Of a DNA stretch of 64,000 bases, positions 2,081 through 41,798 are shown piece by piece. The translations under genes and the position numbers were made by a program. The DNA is taken from the NCBI GenBank assembly GCA_963704775.1, contig CAVPHR010000006.1:67523-131522 (forward strand), read 5' to 3'. The notes beneath the pieces were generated by a model, which ran no database searches, was not told where the DNA came from, and was given only the letters and a program-made list of their open reading frames with translations. Within the stretch, counting starts at the first letter, position 1; every line of letters begins with the position of its first letter. Source of the stretch: an uncultured Chloroflexia bacterium (GTDB lineage: Bacteria; Chloroflexota; Limnocylindria; Limnocylindrales; CSP1-4).

Positions 2081-2083
2081 GCG

Positions 2084-2461
2084 ATGCTGACCCGGACGCG
2101 ACCACTGCCCCTGACCGTCGCCGGCGGCGTGCTTGTCATCGCGGCCATCGCGTACATCGTCCTGATCGCGCTCGCGATCCCAAATGGCTCCGTGTACCTG
2201 ACCGCGCTCGGCGGCACCGAGCCCACGCCCCTCGCGACGGTGGTCGTGGTCTATGGAGCCCTCGCGATCATCGCGGCGTTCCTTGCGCGTCAGCTGCTCG
2301 CTGGCCGTGTCGACCGCCGGGTCGGCGTCGGCTTCGCCGCCTGGTACGGGGTTGCGGCGCTCGGGGCGGTCGCCGTCGGACCCATGGCGGGCGTCGGGAT
2401 CGCGTTGACCGGCCTGCTGCCGCTCGTCCTCGCCTGGTACGGGACCCACGCACCGCGCTGA
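2084..2461 (+). CDS. small integral membrane protein (about 4 TM helices)
   Basis: ORF-track 125 aa starting 3 nt after the add stop. It has four hydrophobic segments (e.g. VAGGVLVIAAIAYIVLIALAI, VVVVYGALAIIAAFLA). No family recognised. Confidence 0.6.
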   Translation: MLTRTRPLPLTVAGGVLVIAAIAYIVLIALAIPNGSVYLTALGGTEPTPLATVVVVYGALAIIAAFLARQLLAGRVDRRVGVGFAAWYGVAALGAVAVGPMAGVGIALTGLLPLVLAWYGTHAPR

Positions 2462-2477
2462 GGAGGGCGGCTCGCGC

Positions 2478-3209: not shown

Positions 3210-3283
3210 CCCGGAAGGCTAGCACCGGCGTTCACGACGCGCTGTCCGGCCGAGTCGCGACCGTGGCTGGTACGCTCGCGGCG

Positions 3284-4450
3284 ATGGACCTGGACCTCTC
3301 GCCCGAACACGCGCTCCTGCGCGACACGATCCGCGACTTCATGCTCACCGAGGTCGCGCCCGTCGTCGAGGCGCACGAGCGCGAGCGCCGCTTCCCGGTC
3401 GAGATCGTCCGCCGCATCGGCGAGCTCGGCTGGCTGGGCATCCCGATCCCCGAGGACGAGGGCGGCGCCGGGCTCGACACGCTCGCCTACGCCATCGCGA
3501 TCGAGGAGATCGGCCGCGTCTGGGGGTCGCTCGGGCTGATCGTGGCGGCGCACACGAGCCTCGGGTGCGGGCCGCTCCACCTCGCGGGCTCGAAGGACCA
3601 GCAGCAGCGATTCCTCGTGCCGATGGCACAGGGCACGGTCATCGGGGCCTACGGCCTGACCGAGCCCGGCGCCGGCAGCGACTCCGGCGGCACCCGCACG
3701 ACCGCCAGTCACGAGGACGGGCCCGACGGCGGGTCGTGGGTCATCGACGGCGGCAAGCGCTTCATCACGAACGCCGGCCAGGCGGGAACCTACATCGTCA
3801 CGGCGCGGACCGGATCCCGGGACGACGGCTCGCCCGAGATCAGCGCCTTCATCGTTCCGGCCGACACGCCCGGGTTCTCGGTGGGGCGACTCGAGGACAA
3901 GCTCGGCCTGCACGCGTCGGCGACCGGCGAGCTCCTGTTCGAAGGGGCCCGGATCCCGGCCGCCAACATGCTCGGCGAGCAGGGGAGTGGCTTCAAGACG
4001 TTCCTCGCCATCCTCGATGGCGGGCGGATCAGCATCGGGGCGCTCGCGGTCGGGCTCGCCCAGGCGGCGCTCGACGCCGCCGTCCCGTACGCGCAGACGC
4101 GCGAGCAGTTCGGCCGGCCGATCGGCTCGTTCCAGGGCGTGGCGTTCATGATCGCGGACATGGCGACCGAGATCGACGCTGCCCGGGCGCTCGTCTGGCG
4201 TGCCGCGTGGCTCAAGGACCAGGGTCGCGACTACGGCCTGGCCGCCGCCGAGGCGAAGCTCTTCGCGTCCGAGGTGAGTTCCCGGGCCACCAACAACGCG
4301 ATCCAGGTGCATGGCGGCTACGGGTACGTGACCGACTACCCGGTCGAGCGCTACATGCGCGACGCGAAGCTCACCGAGATCGGCGAGGGGACGAGCCAGG
4401 TGCAGCGGCTCGTGATCGCCCGCAAGATCCTCGGCCTGCGGGTCGTCTAG
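3284..4450 (+). CDS. acyl-CoA dehydrogenase
   Basis: Lies within ORF 3065..4450. The ATG at 3284 gives MDLDLSPEHALLRDTIRDF.... Characteristic ACAD segments: GAYGLTEPGAGSD, KRFITNAG, IQVHGGYGYVTDYPVERYMRDAKLTEIGEGTSQVQR. Confidence 0.92.
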   Translation: MDLDLSPEHALLRDTIRDFMLTEVAPVVEAHERERRFPVEIVRRIGELGWLGIPIPEDEGGAGLDTLAYAIAIEEIGRVWGSLGLIVAAHTSLGCGPLHLAGSKDQQQRFLVPMAQGTVIGAYGLTEPGAGSDSGGTRTTASHEDGPDGGSWVIDGGKRFITNAGQAGTYIVTARTGSRDDGSPEISAFIVPADTPGFSVGRLEDKLGLHASATGELLFEGARIPAANMLGEQGSGFKTFLAILDGGRISIGALAVGLAQAALDAAVPYAQTREQFGRPIGSFQGVAFMIADMATEIDAARALVWRAAWLKDQGRDYGLAAAEAKLFASEVSSRATNNAIQVHGGYGYVTDYPVERYMRDAKLTEIGEGTSQVQRLVIARKILGLRVV

Positions 4451-4453
4451 GCG

Positions 4454-5179
4454 CTAGCCGACCTGGGTCAGCCGGACGATGAGCCGGTACTGGCTCCGCG
4501 AGCCGACGCACGTCTGCAGGGTCAGGCTCGGGTTCTTCTGTGCGGCGTAGGCCCATGTGCCCTTGGTCGGGGTCGTGACCTTCCACCAGGCGACCTTGTA
4601 GGTCCGGACCTGGCCGCTCGAGTCGGCGTAGTAGAGCATCGCGCCCTTCTTGAGCCGGCCGCGAACGTACGCGTCATGGAGCGTCTTGAAGACGCTGTGG
4701 GCATGACCGAACAGGTACACGTTGTTCCGCCCCGCGCAGCCCCAGCGATAGACGCGATTCCCCGGGTACGACTTGTTCGAACACGAATAGGCCGCGACCG
4801 ACTTGTCGATCCGCAGCGACGGCATCCAGATGTGGTTGCGCCCGTGGTACCTGGCGCTGACCGCCGTGTCGCCGCCCGAGCTGACGGCCGGGCGCGGCTC
4901 TGGCAGGCTCGGGACCGGTCGCGTGCCCGGGGCGCCGACGATGATCGCGGGCGCCGCCGCCGAGAGGATCCGCGACACCTCGACGACGCGAGACTGGGCC
5001 GCGAGGACCTCGCCGGTCGGGGCCGGCGCGACCTCGGTCGTCGGCGTCGCGACGGCCGCGGTCGAGCTCGACGGCATCGCTGCGTCGCGGCCGATCGCCC
5101 CCGAAACGGTGCCGATCCCGAGGGTCAGGGCGAGGAGCGAAGGCGTCAGAAAACGGGTGACACGAGGGATCCGGGGCAT
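4454..5179 (-). CDS. sortase family transpeptidase (class E/F-like)
   Basis: ORF-track 241 aa with an N-terminal signal or anchor (FLTPSLLALTLGIGTVSGA). Catalytic motifs are LFGHAH (His) and SLTLQTCVG (TLxTC Cys). Confidence 0.8.
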   Translation of the reverse strand: MPRIPRVTRFLTPSLLALTLGIGTVSGAIGRDAAMPSSSTAAVATPTTEVAPAPTGEVLAAQSRVVEVSRILSAAAPAIIVGAPGTRPVPSLPEPRPAVSSGGDTAVSARYHGRNHIWMPSLRIDKSVAAYSCSNKSYPGNRVYRWGCAGRNNVYLFGHAHSVFKTLHDAYVRGRLKKGAMLYYADSSGQVRTYKVAWWKVTTPTKGTWAYAAQKNPSLTLQTCVGSRSQYRLIVRLTQVG

Positions 5180-5307
5180 GCCGCCAGCGTCCCCCGGCGG
5201 ACCCCCGGTTGACCGTCACCCGGTCGTCCCATCGGCGTCGAGGCATGAGGACCTTGGCAGACCACACCGCACGGGTACGGACCGGTGCGGACCCGACCGC
5301 CCGACCC

Positions 5308-5787
5308 TCAGCCCCCGTTGCCGGCGGCGACCTCCAGGCCCTTCCGCAGGGCCGCCTCGAAGGCCGGCGCCCAGGGTCCCTGGCCGGCGAGGACGTAGGG
5401 CGACTGGTCGATCGACTCGAAGCTCTCGGGGTCGGTCACGAAGCTTCGGGCGCAGTCGTCCACCGTCGAGCGCAGGCGCTCGAAGACCTCGCTCGTCCGG
5501 AAGACGTAGAGGTAGATCCGGACCGGCTTGGTCTGGCCCATCCCGGACGCGTCCATGGCGATCGCGGTCGGGATGAGGACCGGGTCGTCGCAGCCCGCGT
5601 CGCCCGAGACGACGTTGTCGATGACGATGCCCTGCTGGGTCAGCTCGATCGCGAGGTCCGAGAAGTCGGCCGGCGTCGGCGCCGGCGGCGATGTCGAGAC
5701 GATGCCGCAGCCGCCGACGACGAGCGCGACGAGCAGGAGTCCGGCAAGGCCGATCCGACGGGGGGACATCGGCGCGAAGGCTATCAT
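5308..5787 (-). CDS. lipoprotein, function unknown
   Basis: Only the last 159 codons of ORF 5308..7404 look real. The ATG at 5787 gives MIAFAPMSPRRIGLAGLLLVALVVGGCG (signal peptide plus lipobox L-V-V-G-G-C), followed by a soluble domain. The upstream ~540 codons are Arg/Gly/Asp-rich antisense of the FG-GAP gene. Confidence 0.65.
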   Translation of the reverse strand: MIAFAPMSPRRIGLAGLLLVALVVGGCGIVSTSPPAPTPADFSDLAIELTQQGIVIDNVVSGDAGCDDPVLIPTAIAMDASGMGQTKPVRIYLYVFRTSEVFERLRSTVDDCARSFVTDPESFESIDQSPYVLAGQGPWAPAFEAALRKGLEVAAGNGG

Positions 5788-5847: not shown

Positions 5848-8154
5848 ATGCCCGACCGCCGTCCGTCGCTCCGCCTCGCGCTCTCGATCGTGGCCCTGGT
5901 CGCGATGCTCGCGCCGTCGTCGAGCGTCGCGATCGATGCGCCGCCGGTCCCGGTGTCGGACAACCGGCTCGATCGGCCGATCGTCGACGTCGCGCTCGTG
6001 GCCCGCGCCGATGGCCAGCCGACGCCCGATCTCCTCACCCTGAGCACCGTCGGCCAAGGCCCCGGCGGCGTCGCCGTCGCGCTGCTCCGACGCGAGGACA
6101 CGTGGTCCCCGATCATCGAGGAGACCATCGGCGTCGGGTCCGCGACGGGGGGATCGAAGCCGTGGCTCGTCGAGCTGGGCGCCCGACGATTTGCCGTGCT
6201 GACGGTCGACCCCGACACCGGTCGCACCTTCGTCACTGCGGTCTCGGTCGCCGGCGACCCCGACATCGGACACCCCCTGGCACAGGCGACGACGACGATC
6301 GACCTGGTCGTCACCGATGCGGGCGCCGCCGACACCGATGGCGACGGCATCGCGGAACTGGTCGTGACCGGAGTCGTCGGCCAGCCCGACTCCCCACCGC
6401 GATGCGTGCAGACCATCGTCGAGGTCATCGACAGCTCCAGCCTCGTCCGACGGGCGGCGTACCCCATGACTGATCGCCGGCTGGCGGGGGCCGCGATCGG
6501 CGAATGGGACGGCCGGCCTGGAGCTGACCTGCTTGCCTATGTCGCGGAGGGGGATCCGTGCACGATCGGCTCGACCGCGGATCCCGAGGAGTTGTCCGGA
6601 CTCCTTGCCCTCCGGCTCCGCGACGGGTCCACGATCGTCGACCTGACAAGACGCAGCTCGATCGACCCGCTGGGCCCGCCGCTCGCCTTCGATCTCGACG
6701 ATGACGGCCAGGACGAGGCGCTCGTGCGCGACGGGTCCTCGCTCGTCCTGCTCGACCCGTCGCGCGGCTGGTCGGCGACAGCCGTCGCTGACGAAGGCGC
6801 CATCCCCATGCTCGCGGCGCCGAGCGAGGGCCCTGACGCGAACGGCGGCCGCATCGCCTGGTTCGGGCCTGAGGGCACGCGATCGGGCATGGTCGTCTCG
6901 ATGACCGGCGTGTTCCGGGCGCGCACCGGCGAGATCGTCGTGACCACGCCGGCATCGATGGACCTGCCCGGCCTGCCGTCGACCCGGGGCGAGCTCGGGC
7001 GGCTGCTCATGCAGGACGCGGCGACGCTCCAGCAGGCGCCGCAGGTGTGGCGCGGCGACCTCGACGGCGACGGCTGCCCCGAGGTGCTCGCGCCGCTCGT
7101 GACCGCCGAGTGCGACGGACAGCGCTCGCTTCGAGCGGGCGCGCTCTGGCTGGCCACCCGACCGTTGACGACCTTCGACGTCGGCGCGAACCGCGAGCTG
7201 CTGGTGGCCCCGGCGATGGACTGGGATCCCGTGCTCGGCAGGCCGATCGCACCGACCCCGGCCGCTGCGGGTGCGCCCGGGGCCTGGCGGCATGGGCCAT
7301 CGGTCCGCTTCGTGCTCTCGGAGCTGCGCGCGGGCGACGCGACGTACTTCGCGACCTACCCGATCCCGCGGCCGACGATCGACCGGATCGCGGTGCGTGA
7401 GCATGCCACCGACGTGCCCGGCTTCACCGGCGCACGGGTGCTGGTCCGGTCCGAGACGACCAAGCTCAAGGACCGGCGGCCGCCGGTCGCCCCCACGCTC
7501 GAGGTGTTCCTGGGCGACAGCGTCGACCCGGGCGAACTGGTGTCGCTCGCCCGGATCCCGGTCCCGTCAGGAGCCGAGGCGGGCCGCGACGGCTCGTTCG
7601 TGCGCGTGCCCCTGCCCGACATCCTCACGAGCGCCGACGTGCCCGTGGAAGGCTGGGCCGTATCGATGTCGCAGCTCAACGACTGGGGCGAGATCGCGCC
7701 GCCGGTCGCCGGGACCGTGACCCGGGACACCACCGGGCCCTCGCTCGCGCTCGAGAACCCGTTCACCAGCGCGCCCTGGCCGTGGGAGGCTTCCCTGCAC
7801 GGTCGCTCGGAGCGGGGCGTCATGGTGAGCATCGGGGGCGGACCCCCGGTCGAGACCGACCGGCTCGGGCGGTTCGTCATCGGGACGCAGCTCGCGCCGT
7901 GGCCGCAGACCGTCGCGGTGACCGCGGTCGACCCGTCCGGCAACGCGACGACGGCCACGGTGTCGGTGATCGGTGGCGTCGACTACCGGGAGTTCCCGTG
8001 GCCGGCGATCCTGGCGACCGTCCTCATCCTGGGCGCCCTCATCGGCGCCGTGCGGTCGGGGAGGGGCGGGGCGGTCCGTGAGCTCGTCCCGCCGTCCTTC
8101 GACGACGAGCCGTTCCCCGAGATCGAGGACCTGCCGTCGGGGACGCGCTTCTAG
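5848..8154 (+). CDS. large secreted FG-GAP/VCBS-like repeat protein with C-terminal membrane anchor
   Basis: Lies within ORF 5209..8154. The ATG at 5848 gives the signal peptide MPDRRPSLRLALSIVALVAMLAPSSSVA. It has DxDxDG-type loops (DTDGDGIAELVV, DLDDDGQDEALV, DLDGDGCPEVLA) and a C-terminal TM (WPAILATVLILGALIGAV). No LPXTG motif seen. Confidence 0.75.
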   Translation: MPDRRPSLRLALSIVALVAMLAPSSSVAIDAPPVPVSDNRLDRPIVDVALVARADGQPTPDLLTLSTVGQGPGGVAVALLRREDTWSPIIEETIGVGSATGGSKPWLVELGARRFAVLTVDPDTGRTFVTAVSVAGDPDIGHPLAQATTTIDLVVTDAGAADTDGDGIAELVVTGVVGQPDSPPRCVQTIVEVIDSSSLVRRAAYPMTDRRLAGAAIGEWDGRPGADLLAYVAEGDPCTIGSTADPEELSGLLALRLRDGSTIVDLTRRSSIDPLGPPLAFDLDDDGQDEALVRDGSSLVLLDPSRGWSATAVADEGAIPMLAAPSEGPDANGGRIAWFGPEGTRSGMVVSMTGVFRARTGEIVVTTPASMDLPGLPSTRGELGRLLMQDAATLQQAPQVWRGDLDGDGCPEVLAPLVTAECDGQRSLRAGALWLATRPLTTFDVGANRELLVAPAMDWDPVLGRPIAPTPAAAGAPGAWRHGPSVRFVLSELRAGDATYFATYPIPRPTIDRIAVREHATDVPGFTGARVLVRSETTKLKDRRPPVAPTLEVFLGDSVDPGELVSLARIPVPSGAEAGRDGSFVRVPLPDILTSADVPVEGWAVSMSQLNDWGEIAPPVAGTVTRDTTGPSLALENPFTSAPWPWEASLHGRSERGVMVSIGGGPPVETDRLGRFVIGTQLAPWPQTVAVTAVDPSGNATTATVSVIGGVDYREFPWPAILATVLILGALIGAVRSGRGGAVRELVPPSFDDEPFPEIEDLPSGTRF

Positions 8155-24443: not shown

Positions 24444-24520
24444 GCCGCATTCGTCTAGAGGCCCAGGACACCGCCCTCTCAAGGCGGAGATCACCGGTTC
24501 GAATCCGGTATGCGGTACCA
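24444..24520 (+). tRNA. tRNA-Glu: tRNA-Glu (anticodon CUC)
   Basis: Cloverleaf by eye. Acceptor GCCGCAT/ATGCGGT (G1-U72 wobble). Anticodon stem CCGCC/GGCGG with loop CTCTCAA (anticodon CTC). T-arm ACCGG-TTCGAAT-CCGGT. Discriminator A, and CCA is encoded (24518-24520). Confidence 0.9.
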
Positions 24521-24553
24521 ACCCCCTGATCGCCGGCCCGGCGAAAGCCTTGC

Positions 24554-26642
24554 CTACGGCCCGACCGGCGTCAGCGCGATCCCGCTCGCCATGATGTTCG
24601 CGCCAGCCTTCATCGGGCCGACCGTGCCCCCGGACGCGATGTACCCGTCGGCCATCGCCATGCCCGGGTACGACGTGCCCGCGGTCAGCCCGTTGACGAG
24701 GAACGCGCCGTCCGCCCCGGTCCGCGCGAACGAGACGATCTGGCTCTGCTGGGGGTTGTCGAACCACGCCTGGAGGTCGGTGCCGGGCGCCAGGAGGTAG
24801 ACGACCGCGCCGGCGATCGGCGCGGCCGCTGTCCGCGTCCACGACGAGGCCGGCCAGCGTCGCGACCTCGCTCGCCCCGACCGGGCCGATGGTCGTCTGG
24901 CCGGTGGTCATCGGTCGGAGCGTCGGTCCGCCGAAGACCTCGACCTGGTACGTCCCGTCCGGGAGGCCGCGGTCGTAGTAGAGCTGGGTGAAGTAGCAGC
25001 CGCCGTTCTCGGCGCCCTGCGGGAGGCGGATGCCGCCGCGGTTGACGACCTCGCCGTCGAGCCGCCACTGGCTGACGACGTCCTCGCCGCTCGCGAAGCC
25101 CGGTGTGCTTGACCGAGGCCACGATGTTCGTGGTCCCCGACGGGTAGTTGTTGAGCCGCTTCTGCGGCGGGCAGACGGCGCCACTGTCGGTCCATGTGTC
25201 CACCGTCATGCTCTCGCGGCCGGTCGCCGCCGACCACGTACTTGCTGTCGACCGACCGGCGGCCCGCCTTGGCCCCGTCGATGAGCGGCATGACGAGCGC
25301 GATCGGCCGGACCCACGAATAGCCACCGACGTCCTCACGTGCTCGCGTCGGGATCCCGATGATCGACCCGGCCTCGTTCGCGGCCAGGCCGCCGGAGTTG
25401 CCACTGCTGATGACGGCATCGGTCTTGATCCAGGCGCGCGACCCGATCCGGTCGTCGCTCAGGAAGCCGGACACGCGGCCGGAGCTCAGGCTGATCGTGT
25501 TGCCGCCGATGCCGGGGAAGCCGACGACCGTCAGCGGGTCACCCGCGTGCAGCGTGTCCGAGACGCCGATCGGGACGGTCGGCAGGGTCAGCGGGGCGCC
25601 CGAGAGCGGCCGCCCGGCAAGGTCACGATCGATCTTGATGACGGCGGCGTCGAGGTAGCCGTCCGCCGCGACGACGCTCGCGCGGTACTTCGGCACAGCC
25701 GGCTGGTCCTCCGACTCGATGACAGCGACGACCAGGTCCTCGGGATCGACTTCCGGCGTCGGGTCCATCGTCGAACACGCCGCGACCGGCCGCCGAGGGC
25801 ATGGCCACATGGGCGTTCGTGAGGATGAGTCCGCCTGGCGTGATGATCGTGCCGGAGCCCCAGCCGTAGGCCTGCTCCTGCCCGCCGATCGTCGCGACCA
25901 TCAGGATCTGGACCGTGGCGTTGACGAGGTCGGACGCAGCGGCCGGGGTCGGTCGGCGCGCCCTCGGTCGGGTCGCCGACCGAGGCCAGCTGCGGCCCTC
26001 CGAGCGCTCGTCCGAGGACGGGTCCCGGCACGGCCGCGGTCCCGGCCCGACCGGCGATCTGGCGGGCGAAGCGATCGAAGTCGGGCAGTGCGGCCTCGAG
26101 CTTGTCGGGCGGCGCCTCGACGATGACGGCGAGCACGCGGTCCTCGGGGAAGAGGGCGCCGTCCGCGAAGTAGTGCTCGATCGCCTCGATCGCGGTCGTC
26201 TGGCCGCCAGGGGCATGGTCGACGAACGTGTAGCGGACCTCGTATGTCGGCACGGAGCCGAGCGCGCCCGGGCCCTCCGACGACACCTTGAACGCCTCGA
26301 GCAGGTTCGCGCGGTCGGCGATCCGGCGAGCCGCTGCGTCCTCCGGTGTCACGGTCCCGCCTGCGGCCGCGTCGATGGCCGCGACGCCATAACGCAGGTC
26401 CGGGTCGAGCGGGTCGTACGCGGTCAGCAGGCGGTCACCGGCGGCCGGCAGGACGATCCAGCCGGCCGGCAGCTCGGCGTTGAGCCCGCCTGCGTCGACC
26501 TGCTGCGTGGCGCGCTCGACGTTGTTCCGGATGAGCAGCCCGGCCGCGATGGCGACCAGGACCACGACGATGACGGCGACGAACGACTGCAGCTCGCGCC
26601 GGTCGCGAGCCGCTCGCGGGCTGGCGGCGACGGCCGCGGTCA
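24554..26642 (-). CDS. membrane-anchored trypsin-like (S1/HtrA-type) serine protease with C-terminal beta-sandwich domain, frameshifted (at least 4)
   Basis: The GTG at about 26642 overlaps the prsW stop. It has an N-terminal TM (FVAVIVVVLVAIAAGLLI). The catalytic triad pieces lie in different frames: GLILTNAHV (His), YLDAAVIKID (Asp), SSGNSGGLAANEAG (Ser). The C-terminus ...AVVYLLAPGTDLQAWF...GADGAFLVNGLTAGTSY resembles a carboxypeptidase-regulatory-like fold and ends at TAG 24554-24556. Confidence 0.75.
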
Positions 26643-27594
26643 CGACGAGGCCCCCGCTCCGGCGCCGGCCTCGGCGCTGCCCTGCGCCAGTTCCCGCCGG
26701 ATGAGGGTGGACAGGACGGCCGTCACGGCCGCGGCAAGGACCGCGGCGAGGACCAGCCCGATCCACGGCGCGATCGCGGCGAGCGGGCCCTCGATCGTGC
26801 CCGCGCCCGACGGTGCTGCGCAGGAAGAAGAACGTGCCGTTGAGGCGGCCGCAAGGGCCACGCCGGCCGGCATCCACCAGATCGGCCGCGGCTCGAACTT
26901 CTGGCGTCCCGAGGAAGTAGCCGATGACGCCGCCGAACGACGCGTGGGCGAGCGACGTCAGCACGATGCGGATCGCGCCCGTGCCGAGGTCGACGCCGCC
27001 CGAATCGACGACGAACGCGACGTTGAGCGCGGTCGCGAAGCCGAGGCCGACCGCCGTCCCGTAGATGATCCCGTCGGTCCGCTCGTCGAACTCGCGCGAG
27101 TCGTAGACGGACAGCCGGATCGTGAGGTACTTCAGGCCCTCCTGGGCGAAGCCGACGACGAGGATGCCGCCCGCGAGGTGGACGAGCGGCGAGGTGAACA
27201 GCCAGCTGCCGACATCGAAGAGCTGGTCGACGAGCGGGATGGCGATCGCGGTAGCGACCAGCGCGCCGAGCACGAACTCGCCGACGACCATCGTCCGCGG
27301 CTCGGGCTCGAGGCGGTCGCGACGGTAGAAGAAGCCCAGCCAGACGACGGCCGGCACGATGGCGATGACCAGCCCGATGACGGTCAGGGCCGTGCCGGAG
27401 AGCTGGGGCTGGACCAGCGAGTCGATGGCGTACAGGACGACGACGAACGCGACGAGCAGGACGATCGACGCGACGTCAGCCTGCCAGCCGCCCCGGCGCT
27501 CGCGCGTCGCCCGTTCGAAGTGGAGGTCGCAGAACGCGTAGTCGCCGATCGACCGTGTCGCCGGCTCGTCGCAGATCCTGCACGTCCCGCTCAT
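26640..27594 (-). CDS. PrsW-family intramembrane protease with N-terminal Cys-rich (zinc-ribbon-like) segment, frameshifted near 3' end
   Basis: Lies within ORF 25588..27633. The ATG at 27594 gives MSGTCRICDEPATRSIGDYAFCDLH. It is multi-TM, with FAQEGLKYLTIR and LTSLAHASFGGVIGYFLG motifs typical of the PrsW family. The C-terminal TM is recovered from frame 26640..26873. Confidence 0.7.
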
Positions 27595-27743
27595 GGTCCT
27601 CCGTCCTGCCCGCTTCACCCTCCCAGTGGGCACGGCCGGCCACCCAGACCCCGACTGGTCCGCATGCTAGCGCCCGACCGTGGGCTGTCAATGCCCGTCC
27701 GGGCGGCCTCCGGCGAGGTGGCGCGTTTCCCTACACTCCCCCG

Positions 27744-32523: not shown

Positions 32524-32985
32524 CTAGGAGCACTGGGTCAGCGCGGCCTTGAGTGCCGTCGCGGCCACTTCGACGCCTGCAGCGGCAGTTCGGACATCTG
32601 CCGCCTTCTCGGCGACACTTTCGTCGCTCGTCAGGTCGTTGAGCGCGGTCTTCAGCGTGCCGATCGCGGTCGTGAGTGCCTCGACCTGTGGGCCCGCGGC
32701 CTCCTTCGCCGAGGTCGCCAGCTTCGTCACGGCCGCGTCGACCTTGTCGATGGCCGCGGTGAGTCCGGCCTTGCCTGCCGTCTTCAGATCGAGAGCCTTG
32801 AGGTCCTCCAGCGACGACTTCACCGCTTCGGCGTCAGCGCACACTCCGGCGCCTGCTGCAGGCGCGGACGCAGCGGCTGACGGAACGGAGGTCGCCGCCG
32901 ACGGCGACGACCCGGTCGAGCTGCACGCTCCGAGAATCATGGCGACGCTCGCGACCGCCATCAACAGGAGAGCACGTTTCGTCAC
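32524..32985 (-). CDS. helical lipoprotein, function unknown
   Basis: Intact 153-aa ORF. MTKRALLLMAVASVAMILGACSS is a signal peptide plus lipobox. An Ala/Ser linker follows, then an amphipathic helical region (SSLEDLKALDLKTAGKAGLTAAIDKVDAAVTKLATSAKEA...) and a C-terminal Cys. Confidence 0.7.
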   Translation of the reverse strand: MTKRALLLMAVASVAMILGACSSTGSSPSAATSVPSAAASAPAAGAGVCADAEAVKSSLEDLKALDLKTAGKAGLTAAIDKVDAAVTKLATSAKEAAGPQVEALTTAIGTLKTALNDLTSDESVAEKAADVRTAAAGVEVAATALKAALTQCS

Positions 32986-33027
32986 CTTGATGTCCTCCTT
33001 CGCATGGGCGATCGACGGTCGAGGCGG

Positions 33028-33237
33028 CTAGAACCGGCGGCGGCGACCGGGCGTCACGGCTGCCCCGACGACGGCCGCCTTGGCGATGGGCGACGGGCCC
33101 GGTGACACGGCGGCCCCGACGACCGCCGCCTTGGCGACGGGCGAGCGGCCGGGCGAGACAGCCGCGCCGACGACTGCGGCCTTGGCGACGGGAGCACCGA
33201 TGACGCCGACTCCGCGGCGACGTGGTCCGAGCGGCAT
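33028..33237 (-). CDS. small Gly/Ala/Val-rich protein built of three 17-aa tandem repeats
   Basis: 69-aa ORF starting 1 nt after the upstream stop. The three repeats are PVAKAAVVGAAVSPGRS, PVAKAAVVGAAVSPGPS and PIAKAAVVGAAVTPGRR, flanked by Arg-rich ends. Confidence 0.55.
   Translation of the reverse strand: MPLGPRRRGVGVIGAPVAKAAVVGAAVSPGRSPVAKAAVVGAAVSPGPSPIAKAAVVGAAVTPGRRRRF
33040..33192 (-). repeat. 3 x 51-nt in-frame tandem repeat
   Basis: Coordinates were computed from the protein repeat boundaries (residues 16-66 of ORF 33028..33237). The three DNA units are near-identical when read on the plus strand. Confidence 0.8.
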
Positions 33238-33238
33238 G

Positions 33239-33697
33239 TCAGCCTCCTACTTCGACGAGCGCCTCGTCAGCCTCGACGGCGGCGATGATGGCCTGGATCG
33301 GGATCCGGCCGTTGGCGATCAGCTGCCCACCGGCACGGCGCATGGCCGAGGCGAATGGCGCGGCCCACAGGTTCTCGTAGACGAGGACGCCGGCGACGCT
33401 GCCGGGATCCATCGCGGCAGCGAGATGGTCGACGTCCAATTCGGCCAGAGTCTGCACCAGCTCGGCCTCGAGCCGGGCGAGCTCCCCGAGGTCGTCGAGA
33501 TCACCGAGCTCCTGGGCCATCACCGTGCCGTCCTCGCCCTTCTGCAGGATGAGCAGGTCCATGAGCCGGATGATCCCGGCGTCGTGCAGTCGCAGGAGCT
33601 CGACAGCGCCCTCGCCGGTGAAGTTCTGGGCCCCTGCCGGGAATTCCACGATCAGATAGTCGACGGGTCCGAGCTCGTCGAGCGATCGGTCAGCCAT
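33239..33697 (-). CDS. small acidic cytoplasmic protein (I tentatively recall this family as DUF6325)
   Basis: Intact 152-aa ORF: MADRSLDELGPVDYLIVEFPAGAQNFTGEGAVELLRLHDAGIIRLMDLLILQKGEDGTVMAQELGDLDD... The family name is from memory and not verified. Confidence 0.65.
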   Translation of the reverse strand: MADRSLDELGPVDYLIVEFPAGAQNFTGEGAVELLRLHDAGIIRLMDLLILQKGEDGTVMAQELGDLDDLGELARLEAELVQTLAELDVDHLAAAMDPGSVAGVLVYENLWAAPFASAMRRAGGQLIANGRIPIQAIIAAVEADEALVEVGG

Positions 33698-33889
33698 GAC
33701 TCCTCCACGTTCCAGAGCGCTCCGGCAGCAGCCAGCCGGAGTCGGTCGCGTGTCATCGGCGCGGCCGACTCACGTGCGCCTGCGTCGACGCTTGGCCGAA
33801 TCGGAGGTTACGTCTCGGGTCGGCGGTCGGCATCCACCGAATCGGGTGAGTCTGGCGGTGGGGTCTCTGGAATGGGCCTGGGTCCGTTC

Positions 33890-36800
33890 CTACTGGCAGG
33901 CGCGAGGGGCGTCGTCGTGGATGTACGGCCTGAGCTCTTCGATCGGCAGTGATGACTGAGCCAGTGGGCCTGAGCATGCCAGGCCCGCGAGCTCGGCGGA
34001 CGTCATCGTCTCCGCGTCGCCGTCCATCGCTCGCAGCCAGTCGGGGTCGACGAGATACGCGTCGCCCGAGAGATAGCGGACAGCGATGCGAGGGGCGCCG
34101 GGCACGAACCCTTCGCCACCAAGTCGGAGACCGAGGTCCACGAGCCGCATGGGCGCGCTCGCCGTGTCCCAGAGTTCGCTGCGCCCGTCACCGAGTGACA
34201 CCACCGCCAGGCTGGAATCCGGACTGAAATGCGCCTCGGTCACGGCCGCGTCGAACGTGGTCACCGTGCCATCGCCGAGGTGAACGAGCTCACCTGGAGC
34301 GGACCGCGATCGGACGATCGCCAGCCTGCCATCGGGGCTGTAGACGACGTCGTCGAGGACCGATATCGCAAGGCCGACGAGGCGCGTCCCGTCGGACATC
34401 CGCCGGACCTCGGCAGGATCGTCGCCATTGTCGACGACGAAGCCGTTCGCCTCCTCCGGCGAGTCCGGCCAGAAGATCCCGTCGCTCGCGACCCCCTGTG
34501 TGAACCGTTGGAGGTCGGTCGTGCCGAGCCGCTCGACAGAGGAAAGATCGGCGATCGGTCGCAGCTCGCGGTGCCCGTCTGGGTAAGTCGATAGCACGAA
34601 CGCCGAGTCCGGCGTCCCGCCGAAGCGCACGAGGTCGGGAAGCGGGGACGTCCCGGTCGAGGCCGGAACGTCAACGACCTCTGCCGTCGTTCGTCTGCGC
34701 AATTCGGAGTGGCCCGAACGCCGGATCGCGAAGTACCGCCCAGCCGAATCGCTGATGAACGTCCGGTCCGGGTAGAGGAGCGACTCATCCGACGTGGCGA
34801 TCGAGTGCCCGTCGCGCGTCGAGAAGAGCTCATCCCCGCCGTCGAGATACTGCACGAGGACCGGGCCGTCGCCCGGGCCATAGGTGGCCGTCCATACCTC
34901 CTTGTTCAGCGTGGCCACGACTTCGCCTGTGGCCGTGCGGATGATCTGGCTGATCGGCGTCCCGTCGAACCCGACCGTCAAGATCGAGCCGTCATCGCTG
35001 AACGCGGCCATTCCACCCTCACCGAACACACCCGCCAGCGTGGCGACGACCGATCCGTCGGCGGATCGCCGGAGCTCGCCCGGATCAGTCTGGTACCGGA
35101 CCACGAAGTAGCGCGACTCCGGGTCGGGGCTGAAATTGATGGAGTTGTCGCCGTCAAATCGCGCGAGCACGACGCCGTCGCTTGTCTGCCGGAGTTCGCT
35201 CCGGCGCTCGCCCTCTTCCCCATACGTGACGACGAACCTGTGTGAATTGAGATCGGGACTGAAGGTGACGCCCGTCGCGAGCCCGTCGAGGACGCGGATG
35301 ATCGATCCGTCGGATGTCCGCCGCAATTCGCTCGGAAGCGTGCCTGGCCCCCCGACGCCGCGGTTCACGACGAACGCTGCTTCACGCGGGTCCGAGCTCA
35401 CGTCCTCGAAGGACACGTTGCCGCCCAGGATCAGGCCGCCATCGGAAACCCGACGAAATTCGTTCCTGAAGTTGTCCACGGTGATGACGATGACTGTCGG
35501 CTGGCCCGGTTCACCCAAGAAGGCTGCGCCCACGGAACCCTCGAAGGTTGCGACCGCCACTCCATCGGTCACCCGTCGGAGCTCGCTTTGCCCATGGGAT
35601 CGACTGACGACGACCAACCCGCTGCCGGCCGCCGAGATCAGTTCGTCGGTGTCGGTGCCCAGGTAGGCGACACGGCCCTGTCCGGCGATGTCCGCAACGG
35701 TCGGAGCGAGGTCGATCGCGACGTCGGGATCCGTCACCTGCGCGAGCGCCTCCCCCTCGAGTGCCACCCGCAGGCCCAACAAGGGATCCGTCGCTGCCAG
35801 GTTCTGGCCGGTCGATACGAGCAAGCGAGCCTGGCCCCGTCGCTCCTCGGTGCCGACCCCCAGCCAATTCACCAGTGCCACGAGCGCGAAGCCGGCAACG
35901 AAGGCGAAGGCGGCAATGAAGCCCCCTCTCATGGCCCTCGAGCGACGTCGTTCGGCACGTTCTTCCGCATCCTTGGCCGCGATGCTGGCGTCGAGGAAAT
36001 CGCGTTCGAGTGCGTTGAGGTCGTCTCGGTTCTGCGCGGACCAGGTCACGGCCTCCGTCAGTCGAGTTCCCCCGTAGAAATAGCTCGGATCGCGATCCCG
36101 GGAGGACCACTCCTCGGCGGCCTCGGTCAGGCGGCGGTGGATCCGAAGGCCGGCAGGGTTCTCGTCGACCCAGCCCTGGAGACGAGGCCAGCCGCGGATC
36201 AGTGCCTCATGGGCGACGTCGACGATCTCGCCCGATGGATCATCGCGATCGGTGATGAGCAATCGCGCATCCGCGAGGCGCTGGATGACGGCCTCCGCGT
36301 CACTCGCGCCGTCGCCTGCCGGCAGCAACTCGGCGATCGAGGCGCGGCGCCGGGTGTCCTCGGTGCCTTCGCCGGGCTGTGTCAGGCGAAGCAGGATCCG
36401 CCGGGCCGCAACCTGCTGCGCCGGCGTGAAGCGTGCATATTCGGTCTCGGCCTGCTGGGCGATCGCGCCGCGAACCCCACCGATCTCCCGATACCGGTCA
36501 GTGGTGAGCCATCGGCCACGGCGACCCTCCCACAGCTGCAGCAAGCGTGTGCTGCAAGAGGGGCAGCATCCCGGGCTCGCTGCCGAGATCGGCGAGGATC
36601 GTCTCGACGAGGCCCTTCTCGTAGTTGAGGCCGACGCGTTCGGCTGGCTTGAGGATGGCGTCGTGCAGCTCGTTCGCATCGAGTGGCGTGACGAGGATGT
36701 CTCGCTCGGCCAGCCGGTCGGCGAGGTCGGGCAGCGCGGCCGCCTTGCCGAAGAAGTCGGCCCGCATCGTGACGACGACGACGGTCTGCCCACCGGCCAG

Positions 36801-37933
36801 TGACGAGGCGTAGAGGAGCCCCTCGCACGAACGCGGCCCGCTCCGCGTCGTCACGACACAGCGTGAAGATCTCCTCGAACTGGTCGATGACGATGACGAT
36901 CCGCGCGTCGGCCGGCGCCTTCCCGAGCGCGACCTGCGTGATGACGTGGAGCCCTCGCTCATCGGCCTTCAGCTGCGTGAGGACCGAATCCCGGGCCGTC
37001 AGCGGGTCGGAGTCGCCGGCTACCAGCGGAGCCAGGCGTGCCGCAAGGGATTCGAACGGATGGGGTCCGGGTCGAACGACGGCGATCGACCACGTCGCAC
37101 TGCCCGGGAGGGCGCCGGCGCGCAACTGCGGGATCAGCCCGGCCCGAACTGCCGAACGACTTGCCGCTTCCCGACGCGCCCATGACCGCGAGGAATCGAT
37201 CGGTTCGCAGTTGCTCGACGAGATGCTGGACGAGCGCCTCCCGTCCGAAGAAGAACTCGGCGTGGTCCTCGTCGAAGACTTCGAGACCGCGGAACGGGCA
37301 GACCGACGTGCCTTCCTCGAGTGCTTCGGCGGAGGCGTCCGAAGGCGCGACGCCGCGGATCCCGCTGACCAGTCGGTCGAAGGCGTCCTGATCGTCCAGG
37401 CCCGGGCGGAAGTCGACCCAGGTCAGCCGGGACAGGAACCGCGGCAGCCGCCCGCGTTCCGGAAGCTTGGCCCCCGGCAGGAGGACCGGGATCACCCGGA
37501 ATGTCTGCTCCGATGCACGGCGGCTCAACGCGGCGCGCATCTCCTCGTTCTCCCATGTGCCGAACCCGGCCGGGCCGAGAAAGACCGCGCACGTGGCGCT
37601 CGTATCGATCGCCTCCTCGAGCGCCTCCTGCCAGGGCGCGCCTGGGACGAGATGCCAGGCGTCGATGAACGGCCGGACACCGGCCTCGTCCTGGAGTCGC
37701 CGAGCGAGGTCGAGGACCGCAGGCTTGTCGGCGCTGTTGTGCGACAGGAATACGTCGTACTTGGCCGTCGCGGCGTCCACTCGCCCCTCGCCTTGCCAAA
37801 CTCGAGCTACTTGGATCGCGGTGCCGTGAATACTATCGACGGCCGTCACGGCAGCGTCGTATTCGGACCGACGAGGTCCGACGCGGCGATCGACCGTTCT
37901 CGATGGCGTAGATTCGGGGCGAAGATCAAGCAC
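33890..37933 (-). CDS. TIR domain - STAND (NACHT/nSTAND-like) P-loop NTPase - single TM helix - ~12 degenerate beta-propeller-like repeats; three 1-nt frameshifts
   Basis: Rebuilt from four fragments. 36959..37933 gives the TIR domain (KYDVFLSHNSADKPAVLDLARRLQ...GTWENEEM...RVIPVLLPG), CPFRGLEVFDEDHAEFFFGRE and Walker A GASGSGKS. 36382..37125 gives AVRAGLIPQL... and Walker B RIVIVIDQFEEIF. 36498..36962 gives LLYASSLAGGQTVVVVTMRADFFG...MLPLLQHTL. 33890..36793 gives LQLWEGRRGRW..., the TM GGFIAAFAFVAGFALVALVNWLGV, and repeats with SELRRVTDG / SELRRTSDG / GELRRSADG signatures. Indels lie near 37150, 36820 (a CCCC run) and 36540. The GTG at 37933 is only 8 nt from tRNA-Arg, so the true start may be the GTG at 37849. 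Confidence 0.8.
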
Positions 37934-37941
37934 CCGCCTTC

Positions 37942-38017
37942 GTCCCCGTAGCTCAGTGGACAGAGCAGCCGCCTTCTAAGCGGAAGGTCCCAGGTTCGAA
38001 TCCTGGCGGGGGCGCCA
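37942..38017 (+). tRNA. tRNA-Arg: tRNA-Arg (anticodon UCU)
   Basis: Acceptor GTCCCCG/CGGGGGC. D-arm GCTCAGTGGACAGAGC. Anticodon loop CTTCTAA (anticodon TCT). T-arm CCAGG-TTCGAAT-CCTGG. Discriminator G, and CCA is encoded (38015-38017). Confidence 0.9.
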
Positions 38018-38163
38018 ATCTCTACCGAAAGATGACCGAGCCTGACCGTCGGCCGAGGTAGGATTGGGCTCCGCACGCGGGAAGCCCATACGACCGCGAG
38101 TGGATCCCGATCCCTGATTTCGAGAGCGCGCCGCATCGACGCGCCGCCGAGGAGGCATCCCTT

Positions 38164-39817
38164 ATGACGACGCCGTCGGCCACGGACGAGCCAGCGATCC
38201 AACTCAGCGACCGGGCGCGCCTCGAGATCCTCGGCGCGATCCTCCTCGCGCTGTTCCTGTTCGCGCTCGACCAGACCGTGGTCGGCACGGCGCTGCCCGG
38301 TCATCGTCACCGACCTCAACGGGCAACGAGCTGTACACCTGGGTCGGTCACGATCTACCTGCTGACCGCGACGATCAGCGGCCCGATCTACGGCAAGCTG
38401 TCGGACCTCTTCGGGCGGCGCCCGATCATCATCTTCGCGGTCAGCCTGTTCCTGATCGCATCGGTCGTGTGCCGGCCTCAGCCAGGAGATGTGGCAGTTC
38501 ATCCTGTTCCGCGGGCTCCAGGGCCTCGGTGGCGGCGCCGTCTTCCCGGTCGCGCTCGCGGTGGTCGCCGACCTCTACACGCCGGCCGAGCGGGGCAAGT
38601 ACCTCGGCCTGTTCGGGGCGGTGTTCGGGCTGTCGTCGCTCGTCGGGCCGGCCATCGGCGGCATCATCACCGACAACTTCGGCTGGCACTGGATCTTCTT
38701 CGTCAACGTGCCGATCGGCCTCATCTCGCTGTTCATCCTGTGGCGGCTGCTGCCGGCCATCAAGCGGCCCGATGCGGCCGAAGCACATCGACTACGTCGG
38801 CGCTGCGCGTCTTCACCCTCGCGATCGCGCCCTTCCTCATCGGCCTCACGAACAAGGCAGGCCGGCGAATGGACCGATCCGAGCGGTCGGCGGCCTGATC
38901 CTCGTCGGGCTCGTCTTCGGCGCGCTGTTCGTGTGGATCGAATCGCGCGCCCCGGATCCGATCGTGCCGCTGTCCCTGTTCCGGATGCGGCACATTCACG
39001 ATCTCGGTGGCGGCGATGTTCCTGGCCGCGTTCGGGTTCTTCGGCGCGGTCATCTTCCTGCCGCGCTGGTTCCAGACGGTCGCCGGGGCCAGCGCGACCG
39101 AGTCCGGCTACAGCATCCTGCCGCTCCTCGTTCGGCCTGATCTTCAGCGCCATCGCATCCGGCCAGATCGTCGCGCGGACCGGCCGCTACAAGGTGCTGA
39201 TCCTCGGGTCGCTGCGTCCTGCTGGCCGTCGGGCTGTGTGCTGCTGACGCAACCTGCACGCGGACACGGATCGCCTCGTCCTGTCGCTCTGGATGCTCAT
39301 CACCGGGCTTGGGCATCGGACCGTCGTTCGCGGTCTTCACGCTGATCGTCCAGAACGCCGTGTCGCCGCGACCGGATCGGCGTGGCGACCAGCAGCCTGA
39401 CGTTCTTCCAGCAGATCGGCGGGACCGTCGGCCTGACGATCGCGGGCACGGTCTTCGCGAGCCGGCTGACGGAGGAGATCCCGACCCAGCTCCTGGCCGC
39501 GGGCGTTCCACAGCAGTTCGTCGACCAGTTCGCGGGCGGGCAACAGCGTCGACGTCACCGGGACCGGCGACCTCGGCGAGCGGATCCTCGCCGCCGTGCC
39601 CGCCGAGCCGCGCAGGCCGCCGTCGAGCCGCTTGATCCCCAGCATCGTGCACGGGATCTACGAGGCGTTCTCGCTCGCGGTCGCCTCGACGTTCTGGGTC
39701 GGCATCGTCGGCGCCATGATCGGCGGCGGTGGTGGTCCTGTTCCTTCGCGAAGAGCCGATGCGATCGACCTTCGAGTTCGAGGCCCCGGCGCCGGCGGCG
39801 GAAGGCTCACCCGGGTA
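38164..39817 (+). CDS. MFS transporter, DHA2/EmrB-like (14-TM type), heavily frameshifted (at least 8)
   Basis: The ATG at 38164 is preceded by GAGGAGG. Fragments lie across all three frames: LFALDQTVVGTALP, TIYLLTATISGPIYGKLSDLFGRRPIIIFAVSLFLIAS, MWQFILFRGLQGLGGGAVFPVALAVVADLYTPAERGKYLGLFGAVFGLSSLVGPAIGGII, AAMFLAAFGFFGAVIFLPRWFQTVAGASATESGY, ATSSLTFFQQIGGTVGLTIAGTVF. TAA at 39815-39817. Confidence 0.75.
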
Positions 39818-39888: not shown

Positions 39889-41798
39889 ATGCCCTTCAGC
39901 GACATGGCGGAGCGACTGGTCGCGCTCCGGACGCCGGGCGAGATCGCGATCGCTCCGGACGGCGAGACCGTCGTCTTCTCGCTCCACCCGGCCGCAGCGG
40001 ATGCCGGCTCGCACCTGCCGAGTGAGGTGTGGCTGCTCCGTGGCGACGGACCCGCGACGCTGCTGACGGACGGCTCGATGCCCGCGTGGTCACCGGACGG
40101 CGGTCGCATCGCGTTCCTCTCGGACCGGGCGACGCCGGGACATCAGCTGCCGTACACGACGACCCTCGATGGCAGGCCGGTGCTGGCGGCGGAGCTGACC
40201 GGCTCGGCCGAGGCGGTCGCCTGGTCGTCCGACGGCACGCATCTCCTCGTGATGGCCGCCGACGCAGGCCTGTATGGGCTCGACTTCTCGGCTCGCGCGG
40301 TGCTGTGGTCCGAGCACACGGGCCTCGAGGTCCGGCGGCCGAACGAGTGCCTGGCGCCGCCTGTTCTGGATCGACCTCGAGTCCGATGTCGTCCAGGAGG
40401 TCGGCCCGCCGAACCACAGTGTCTGGGAGTTCGACCTGCTCGACGATTCGACGGTCGTCGCGATCGTCTCGGACGCGCCCAGCGGCTACGGCTGGTACCA
40501 CTCGCGGCTCGTCGTGCATCGACCTCGCCAGCCGGACCGCCCGAACGCTGTACCAGCCGACCTGGCACCTCGAGGGGCTGACCGTGTCGCCCGACGCACG
40601 GCGGGCCGCGGTCGTCGAAGGCTACTCGAGCGACCCGGGCCTGCTCAGCGGCAGCATCAAGGTCATCGACCTCGACGATGCGTCGATCGCTGATCCCTGG
40701 CGCGGCCTCGAGACCGTGGGTCTGGCGTCCTGGTGTGATGCCGAGTCGCTCTGGTACGCGCGGACCGACAGCCTCGGGACCGCCGCGGGTCGGGTCTGGC
40801 TGGACGGCCGCCGCGACGAGGTCTGGTCCGGGCACGCGTTCATCGGCGGGAACGTCGTCAAGCCACAGTGCGCGGTGAGCGACGGCGCGGCCACGGTCCT
40901 CACCACCCATGAGGCGCACGGCGTCCCGCCCGAGATCGCCCGTTTCGATCCGGCGACGCGCGACTGGGTCCGCCTCACGACGTTCAACGACGCGCTCATG
41001 GCCGACGACCCGGTCTGGCCTGACGCCCGGCCGATGCGCTGGACCGCTCCGGACGGCCTCGAGATCGAGGGCTGGCTGATGACCCCGCACGGCGCGAACG
41101 GGCCGCTGCCGCTCATCGCCGCCGTCCACGGCGGCCCGAGCTGGTGCTGGAGCACGTACTTCTCCGAGTCCGAGCCGAACGGCGTCGTCCTCGCCGACGC
41201 CGGGTTCGCGGTCCTCCTGGCGAACCAGCGCGGCAGCACCGGTCGTGGGCACGCGTTCGCACAAGGCGTCATCGGCGACCCTGGCGGCGGGGACTTCGCC
41301 GACATCCTGTCCGGGATCGACGCGTGCATCGAGGCCGGCATCGCCGACCCGGATCGGCTCGGGATCGCCGGGTTGTCGTACGGCGGCTTCATGGCCGGCT
41401 GGGCCGTCGGCCAGACGGACCGGTTCAAGGCCGCCGTCGCCATGTCGGTCGTGGCCGACTTCCGGTCGCTGCACCTGACCTCGGAGGTGGCGGCCTGGGG
41501 CGAGGGCATCCTCGCCGGGCGGTGGGACGATCCGTCCGGCGCCTACACGGACCGATCGCCGGTCGTCCACGCCCACCGCTGCGTGACGCCGACGCTCGTG
41601 ACGGCCGGGGAGCTGGACCGCTGCACGCCGATGGAGCAGGGGGTCCAGCTCTACACGGCGATCGTGGCAGCCGGCGCCGAGACCGAGCTCGTCATCTATC
41701 CGCGCGAGGGCCACGTCGTCGTCGAGCGGGCGCACGCCCTCGACCAGATCCGGCGCACGACCGAATGGTTCGAGCGCTATCTGTCGGCGGGCGCCTGA
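39889..41798 (+). CDS. S9 family serine peptidase (prolyl oligopeptidase/acylaminoacyl-peptidase-like), frameshifted (2)
   Basis: The ATG at 39889 is preceded by GAAAGGA. N-terminal beta-propeller segments: AWSPDGGRIAFLSDR, VAWSSDGTHLLV. Catalytic domain from ORF 40029..41798: GIAGLSYGGFMAGWA (GxSxGG), ...ELDRCTP..., YPREGHVV. Frame switches are near 40340 and 40520. Confidence 0.85.

Follow-up and report, generated by a model that had tools for sequence, protein, structure and literature searches.

Are four overlapping fragments on one strand, lying in three reading frames beside a tRNA gene, the pieces of a single large receptor gene, and on which side of the membrane would such a receptor sense its ligand? 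The question is raised by a stretch of 64,000 nucleotides, hereafter the window, from an uncultured Chloroflexia bacterium (GenBank assembly GCA_963704775.1, contig CAVPHR010000006.1, positions 67,523 to 131,522), in which the reading-frame list places the open minus-strand fragments at 33890-37933. We consider it rather likely that the region is one gene, encoding an NLR-like receptor with cytosolic TIR and ATPase parts and a predicted propeller sensor outside the cytoplasm, and that its frameshifts are indel errors of the assembly. The gene appears to be an ordinary member of the large, computationally defined nSTAND1 family, and its receptor function is predicted from sequence. It leads to a broader proposition, which seems to us evenly poised: most sampled nSTAND1 proteins, this one among them, would be hybrids of NLRs and Toll-like receptors (TLRs), embedded in the membrane, in which a propeller or FGE sensor outside triggers a cytosolic STAND-TIR suicide module via one helix.

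To reconstruct the gene, the region was aligned three ways with its syntenic relatives L001 and L002, found by protein look-ups, whose identity to the window over the gene is 98.8% and 84%, respectively. Compared with both, the window carries three single-base insertions, given here for the coding strand: a G at 37157, a C at 36818 and a G at 36546. Deleting them produces a single frame of 1,295 codons without internal stop, in which the second junction reads …FVRGVLYAS… according to the same alignment. The initial annotation had joined the four fragments by three 1-nt repairs near 37150, 36820 and 36540, and the alignment bears it out nearly to the base. Its claim of one large protein also stands, but its length of about 1,340 aa does not, since the most likely start, GTG 37780, gives 1,295 aa. 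This predicted start is preceded by the Shine-Dalgarno-like GAGGGG and agrees with the N-termini of two homologues, P0003 and the intact P0002 (1,294 aa, 62% identity), and on these grounds the start of the maximal open reading frame (ORF), GTG 37933, was rejected. The earlier statement that the 5' end lies 8 nt from tRNA-Arg depended on that unlikely start and falls with it; from GTG 37780 the distance to tRNA-Arg(UCU) is 161 nt. A scan of 33600-38200 for promoters and terminators found none, with consensus motifs that may not apply to this phylum.

Are these frameshifts errors of assembly, or has the gene been lost? Assembly error is the likeliest explanation, with the gene itself intact. 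Each assembly has its own private indels: three insertions in the window, a single T deletion at 36988 in L001, which has none of those three, and in L002 a break much further downstream. Moreover, the window and L001 differ across the gene by 33 synonymous and 15 non-synonymous changes, a ratio of substitution rates (dN/dS) of 0.16, which is a signature of purifying selection. The neighbouring genes are also riddled with indels, as an MFS transporter (~38164-39700, plus strand) and an S9 peptidase (~39900-41798, plus strand) are both split between frames, and the alignment to both relatives opens 18-59 gaps per kb in patches at 28-32, 38-40 and 42-46 kb. The consensus of the assembly seems locally poor in these patches, and hence pseudogene calls anywhere in the window are suspect. 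The relatives come from ENA assemblies of the "contig_NNNN" style and from MFD metagenome-assembled genomes (MAGs), which we take to be nanopore-based; the assembly of the window itself is apparently a nanopore metagenome of the Microflora Danica type. The "frameshifts" of this locus are a caution on indel errors in long-read MAGs.

A true pseudogene, in which the insertions are real (possibly very recent) and what is left of an immune receptor gene is decaying, is in our view unlikely. Four fragments in three frames are what such a remnant would look like, the insertions cluster in ~610 bp, none of the three inserted bases sits in a homopolymer, and three to four indels per 48 substitutions could also be compatible with neutral decay; in addition, loss is frequent among accessory immune genes, and this one is missing altogether from five relatives. 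Against decay stand the privacy of the insertions, none of which occurs in a relative 98.8% identical, the dN/dS of 0.16, the lack of any in-frame stop mutation, and indels of implausible density in neighbouring genes of housekeeping type in the same assembly. Thus, on the private insertions, the low dN/dS and the indel-riddled neighbours, the gene is most likely intact.

The repaired protein begins with a TIR domain, which matches Pfam TIR_2 with E 2e-25 (90 bits against a cut-off of 28) and Pfam TIR with 22.8 bits against 21.3. When it is aligned, by sequence only, with the TIR domains of Brucella BtpA/TcpB (4lzp/4lqc) and Acinetobacter AbTIR (7uwg/8g83), E80 of the segment GTWENEEM falls on the Glu of the W-x3-E-L motif ('WPARELDG' in BtpA/TcpB, 'WTNYELDG' in AbTIR), a residue which we take to be catalytic in both. 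W76-x3-E80 is therewith a candidate for the equivalent catalytic motif, and NADase competence is predicted. Among 120 homologues, W76 is kept in 119 and E80 in 108, and the GKSS and DQFEE of the NTPase are kept in all 120.

The NTPase is identified as nSTAND1 by a match to PF20703 of 446.8 bits (E 1.3e-133) that covers positions 1-378 of the 379 in the model and runs unbroken across the three junctions. Removing base 37157 restores the Walker A motif GASGSGKSS, and the Walker B motif IVIVIDQFEE and the motif CPFRGL...FFFGRE are present; Pfam NACHT has no match in the repaired protein. Because the window copy is frameshifted in this part, the cytosolic half was modelled on its 89%-identical orthologue P0003. 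The AlphaFold (AF2) model, with a predicted local distance difference test score (pLDDT) of 84.3, shows the TIR domain, the P-loop NTPase, and helical and winged-helix domains, followed by an uninterrupted helix at residues 589-663. In Foldseek, the best PDB match of this half is the plant TIR-NLR RPP1 (7crc, E 4e-9, ~585 columns), and Orc1/Cdc6, Apaf-1 and Avs5 come next. The protein has the tripartite order of STAND proteins, namely an effector, an NTPase with a helical/winged-helix arm, and a repeat sensor.

The sensor is a propeller. AF2 models the C-terminal 654 residues with a pLDDT of 87.7 and a predicted template-modelling score of 0.85 as a three-helix bundle, ~13 four-stranded blades (~52 strands) and a short helical tail, and the same region holds 12 ELRR-like signatures spaced 39-52 residues apart. 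Foldseek matches it to double WD40 propellers with probability 1.00 and E-values from 4e-17 to 8e-14 among the top 50 listed, with TM-scores that are low (0.2-0.29); the best structural matches are Pwp2, a Nostoc repeat propeller, Apaf-1 (3sfz, 3shf), COPI beta', Aip1 and Gemin5. None of the Pfam WD40 models (PF00400 and relatives) matches, and only Beta-prop_THOC3 appears, below threshold, at 16.8 bits against a cut-off of 305. The propeller is thus of a divergent subtype defined by the ELRR signature, which counts ~1,000 cluster representatives, while the family search as a whole scored 8,000 word-sharing candidates and retained 4,309 homologues at E <= 0.001.

This sensor has diverged more than the rest of the protein. 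Identity to P0002 is 83% in the TIR domain, 77% in nSTAND1 and 49-52% in the propeller, and the stretches most diverged from L002 are residues 1068-1187 (62%) and 1185-1276 (71%), towards the C-terminal end of the propeller. Proteins that couple a conserved signalling core to a fast-evolving sensor usually show such a distribution, and as a pattern of sequence divergence it points to receptor-like evolution. The initial annotation had proposed the order of TIR, STAND NTPase, helical arm, transmembrane (TM) helix and repeat sensor, which Pfam, hydropathy, AF2 and Foldseek recover, with STAND now specified as nSTAND1. The candidate catalytic Glu in GTWENEEM, both Walker motifs and the hydrophobic helix after RRRSRAMR that it had pointed out are likewise found, and its roughly twelve repeats of ~45 aa prove to be the blades of the propeller.

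If the TIR domain and the NTPase are cytosolic, as their dependence on NAD+ and ATP implies, the position of the propeller hinges on the helix between the two halves. Its Kyte-Doolittle mean of 2.39 over 19 residues makes it the sole segment of this kind in the protein; it is preceded by RRRSRAMR, with six Lys and Arg residues on its N-terminal flank and three on its C-terminal flank. In the P0003 model the span lies within the continuous helix of ~75 residues at 589-663, which is packed against no domain. One strong hydrophobic helix is also found in 112 of 134 sequences, which are the 133 homologues that the two protein searches gave plus the window protein itself, with Kyte-Doolittle values of 2.0-3.0 over 19 residues and 21-29 uncharged residues. 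In full-length TIR-nSTAND1 homologues it lies ~40-90 residues past nSTAND1, whether the sensor is an ELRR propeller, canonical WD40 or FGE-sulfatase. Within 15 residues of the helix, Lys plus Arg average 5.25 on the N-terminal side and 2.71 on the C-terminal side, and the N-terminal side has more in 100 of the 112.

Cysteines point, indirectly, in the same direction. The only two in the 654 residues after the helix, C1268 and C1294, are kept in 38 of 39 aligned homologues, the one miss at either position probably being due to P0122, whose tail is out of frame; we infer a disulfide between them. A bias towards even numbers of Cys is a mark of exported, disulfide-bonded proteins, and even counts are found after the helix in 76 of 99 sequences (binomial p = 8.5e-8, a value overstated by the relatedness of the sequences) and before it in 48 of 99. 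The sensor module also occurs in other contexts. In P0124 (L015 1803-3941) it stands alone behind a basic N-terminal tail of ~30 residues and an N-terminal signal anchor, with an unrelated upstream gene 555 nt off. In P0141 (2,268 aa, from a metagenome), nSTAND1 and an ELRR-type propeller are joined to further WD40 repeats and a PPC domain, the bacterial pre-peptidase C-terminal domain typical of secreted proteases. In addition, the metagenome proteins P0125 (962 aa) and P0126 (863 aa) have TIR fused straight to the TM helix, the helical bundle and the ELRR propeller, with no NTPase. From the charge bias, the conserved Cys pair, the even-Cys bias and the module's occurrence behind a signal anchor and with PPC, the topology is probably N-in/C-out, with the propeller outside the cytoplasmic membrane.

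P0128 was considered as a second stand-alone, signal-anchored case and rejected as a contig-edge fragment. Its gene (L017 2-1963, cut by the contig end) is followed after 29 nt by a second nSTAND1 gene (1992-5741, 1,249 aa), an arrangement that suggests tandem paralogous receptors.

It could also be that the helix is a buried or oligomerisation helix and that the propeller remains in the cytosol as in Apaf-1, but this seems to us quite improbable. The great majority of WD40 propellers reside in the cytosol, Apaf-1, Pwp2 and COPI as the best structural matches are cytosolic or nuclear, and WD40 and FGE sensors count as intracellular in a recent STAND survey; a buried helix, on the other hand, would hardly be expected to be strongly hydrophobic and of TM length in 112 of 134 sequences, at an equivalent position in full-length TIR-nSTAND1 proteins, to show a strong positive-inside bias and an even-Cys bias confined to the part after it, or to be left unpacked by AF2, and the same sensor would hardly be found behind a signal anchor without any cytosolic domain. 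We thus return to an outside propeller as the preferred topology.

To our knowledge, ligand sensing is intracellular in all bacterial STANDs and NLR-like immune proteins that have been characterised. An outside sensor, called unusual in the initial annotation, is unusual by comparison with these cytosolic STANDs but not within its own family, given how widely the strong helix recurs there. The name nSTAND1 goes back to Kaur, Iyer, Burroughs and Aravind (2021), who presented it as a clade of STANDs from conflict systems, with effectors that include TIR (PMC8195603). Among proteins diversified by diversity-generating retroelements (DGRs) there are nSTAND1 proteins with FGE/CLec sensors, and two targets of nSTAND1 type were judged likely cytoplasmic (PMC10907252). 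WD40 and FGE sensors are among those listed in a survey of prokaryotic STANDs published in Nature in 2026, which frames sensing as intracellular; in its main text the words 'membrane', 'periplasm' and 'extracellular' do not occur, and 'transmembrane' is confined to an abbreviation in a figure legend. The literature searched contains no explicit description of an nSTAND1-TM-propeller topology and only general remarks on TM-bearing bNACHTs and DGR targets. Hence, an outside-sensor topology appears under-described across the nSTAND1 family.

How does the window protein compare with known systems? It is most like the nSTAND1 conflict proteins of the TIR-nSTAND1-WD40 type, with which it shares the full-length PF20703 domain, the NTPase motifs, the N-terminal TIR, the C-terminal propeller and the hydrophobic helix after the NTPase, and from which it differs in having a propeller of the divergent ELRR subtype that Pfam WD40 fails to match. 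Plant TIR-NLRs (RPP1 and ROQ1) have the same succession of TIR, STAND NTPase and helical/winged-helix arm, and the same logic would be expected, oligomerisation that assembles TIR NADase sites; however, they are soluble, sense with LRR and C-JID domains, read intracellular effectors and have NB-ARC rather than nSTAND1, at 14-15% identity. Apaf-1 and bacterial Apaf-1-like STANDs also place a tandem WD40 double propeller after a STAND NTPase, and Apaf-1 is among the top matches of both halves. In contrast to the window protein, with its TM helix between the NTPase and the propellers, Apaf-1 resides in the cytosol, carries CARD as its effector adaptor and uses its propellers to bind cytochrome c within the cell.

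Avs1-5 and bNACHT are likewise single-gene combinations of effector, NTPase and sensor with an accessory distribution, and EfAvs5 is among the structural matches, whereas the window protein matches no PADLOC Avs or Pfam NACHT model and the characterised Avs and bNACHT sense cytoplasmic phage proteins. Animal Toll-like receptors, which use TIR, and the mycobacterial kinase PknD, with its beta-propeller on the outside, resemble the window protein in their overall logic: a repeat domain outside the membrane is linked through one TM helix to a domain that signals in the cytosol. This likeness does not imply homology to the TLR ectodomain or to the NHL propeller of PknD, and the window protein differs in being N-in/C-out, as predicted, and in having an NTPase switch between TM helix and TIR.

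A mechanism can be proposed by analogy with the plant TIR-NLRs RPP1 and ROQ1, Apaf-1, bacterial Avs and bacterial TIR NADases. The propeller would bind its ligand at the cell surface or wall, which might be part of a phage, a foreign cell-surface molecule or a product of envelope damage, and the resulting change would be relayed down the continuous juxtamembrane helix. The nSTAND1 domain may then swap its nucleotide and oligomerise within the plane of the membrane, so that clustered or paired TIR domains would build active NADase sites. Loss of NAD+, or a TIR-derived signal, would finally arrest or kill the cell.

Whether such a receptor would serve against phages is a separate matter. It may work as described and have another role, in envelope stress, in kin/non-kin recognition or as a developmental death switch, roles of the sort put forward for conflict systems in multicellular or filamentous bacteria; we regard this as a serious alternative but clearly the less probable case. 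An outside sensor would be blind to intracellular phage proteins, which are what all characterised Avs and bNACHT recognise (PMC13581612), and nSTAND1 systems were described among the apoptosis-like systems of multicellular prokaryotes (PMC8195603); the viral contigs scanned with the N-terminal query hold no relatives, PADLOC gives no system hit, and known defence genes were not identified next to the gene. A role in defence is favoured by the presence/absence polymorphism, deviant composition and fast-evolving sensor of the gene, all typical of immune genes, and by the fact that anti-phage systems are the best-known setting of TIR effectors. The evidence separates neither role from the other, and the two are not mutually exclusive.

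Several observations weigh against the receptor interpretation as a whole. Besides the inserted bases outside homopolymers and the indel count compatible with decay, these are that the topology was derived from sequence statistics, with counts that are not independent because the homologues are related, and that the C1268-C1294 disulfide is itself a deduction. Moreover, PADLOC and NCBIfam searches of the repaired protein returned weak TIR-containing hits (PADLOC best E 5e-7) but no system model, no known defence genes were identified adjoining the receptor gene, and the literature searched yielded no experimental work on defence, NADase activity or oligomerisation of any nSTAND1 protein. The initial statement that TIR-STAND proteins are established immune effectors therefore applies to them in general and not to nSTAND1 members, none of which was found tested in that literature.

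If the broader proposition is true, these proteins would be bacterial pattern-recognition receptors that detect threats before entry, a prokaryotic counterpart of receptors joining a TLR-like topology to an NLR-like switch, and TIR-TM-propeller proteins of the P0125/P0126 type would match Toll-like receptors directly in topology. Sensing from outside the membrane would then be the mode of a large, widespread clade, and bacterial immunity, or the control of cell death, would gain a layer of surface surveillance. Taken by itself, this locus has a more modest meaning, that of an accessory immune-type gene at a variable site flanking a tRNA.

The site was compared in relatives found by scanning species-representative genomes for the S9 peptidase, which are MAGs titled "uncultured Chloroflexia bacterium" with a peptidase 82-95% identical. 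Besides the window, tblastn finds the gene in L001 and L002 but in none of L003-L006 and L012, all five of which keep tRNA-Arg(tct). Blastn homology between the window and L012 ends at 33865 and resumes at 37941 (Table 1), and the same site holds 523 bp with a SnoaL-like ORF (6921-7443) in L012, ~35 nt in L003, and ~3 kb of other cargo in L004 (6170-9250), with genes for two small helical proteins and for one protein with a hemerythrin domain. The presence/absence polymorphism expected earlier at the tRNA-Arg flank is thus found, and the gene is not core to the clade.

The 4,075-bp segment, which holds only the receptor gene, contains no integrase, and no att-like repeats were found bracketing it, the DNA repeats that were seen merely reflecting the signature of the blades. 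Abutting the tRNA at its 5' end, with neither integrase nor flanking repeats, the segment is not a classic integrative island at a tRNA 3' end; of the classic acquisition hotspot that had been proposed, the gain and loss at the site stands (three genomes have the gene and five lack it). The site is a variable hotspot beside tRNA-Arg, and the gene is accessory cargo in a soil lineage. Its composition also differs as claimed, with a G+C content (GC) of 68.05% against 72.2% in the rest of the window, which makes it the lowest 3.9-kb stretch in sliding-window analysis (z = -4.15), a modest deviation. Its G+C at third codon positions (GC3), 0.80, is the lowest among the reading frames of the window, tied with the neighbour at 32527-33027 (0.80); the other neighbour, at 33242-33769, has 0.82.

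Table 1. Features of the receptor gene and its site, in window coordinates
Feature	Position	Strand	Basis or details
Variable segment: whole gene plus 161-nt upstream region, 4,075 bp	33866..37940	-	blastn breaks vs L012
TIR-nSTAND1-TM-propeller gene (most likely start), 1,295 codons after repair	33890..37780	-	stop 33890-33892
TIR domain, residues 10-138	37367..37753	-	Pfam TIR_2, 90 bits; W76 37553-37555, E80 37541-37543
nSTAND1 NTPase module, residues 162-564	36086..37297	-	PF20703; Walker A ~37153-37180, Walker B IVIVIDQFEE 36871-36900
Single predicted TM helix, residues 618-641	35855..35926	-	Kyte-Doolittle 2.39 over 19 residues; sole such segment
Three-helix bundle after the TM helix, residues 642-700, conserved PLLGLR motif	35678..35854	-	AF2 pLDDT 90-98; homologue alignment
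Tandem WD40-like beta-propeller, ~13 blades, residues 701-1243	34049..35677	-	AF2, Foldseek, 12 ELRR-like signatures
C-terminal helical tail, residues 1244-1295; C1268 (33974-33976), C1294 (33896-33898)	33893..34048	-	
Window-private inserted G, frameshift 1, within Walker A	37157	-	gap in L001 and L002
Window-private inserted C, frameshift 2	36818	-	gap in L001 and L002
Window-private inserted G, frameshift 3	36546	-	gap in L001 and L002
tRNA-Arg(UCU) (tct)	37942..38017	+	ARAGORN; 5' end is the right-hand segment boundary (blastn)

Some further observations concern the lineage and the surroundings of the gene. In the next group of relatives by S9 peptidase (62-66% identity) the records are titled Actinomycetes or Actinomycetota; judged by its 72% G+C and its genes, the window would have suggested Actinobacteria, and the Chloroflexia label deserves checking. 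Just past the cargo of L004 lies a gene for an N6/N4 DNA methylase (L004 4674-6275). In the window, a 69-aa ORF at 33028-33237 on the minus strand consists of three tandem Ala/Val/Pro-rich units of ~20 residues (…VAKAAVVGAAVSPG(R/P)SP…) and is flanked by a DUF6325 gene (33239-33697) and an Ala-rich, lipoprotein-like ORF of 153 aa (32524-32985), both of which have a low GC3 like the receptor gene.

The window also varies beside a second tRNA gene, tRNA-Glu(ctc) (24444-24520). Homology to L012 ends directly past this tRNA and resumes at 27644, so that ~3.1 kb in the window (24522-27643) stand against ~470 bp in L012. The segment includes a gene for a PrsW-family intramembrane protease (25591-27666, minus strand), which is kept in L001 and L002, and the site looks like a second presence/absence polymorphism.

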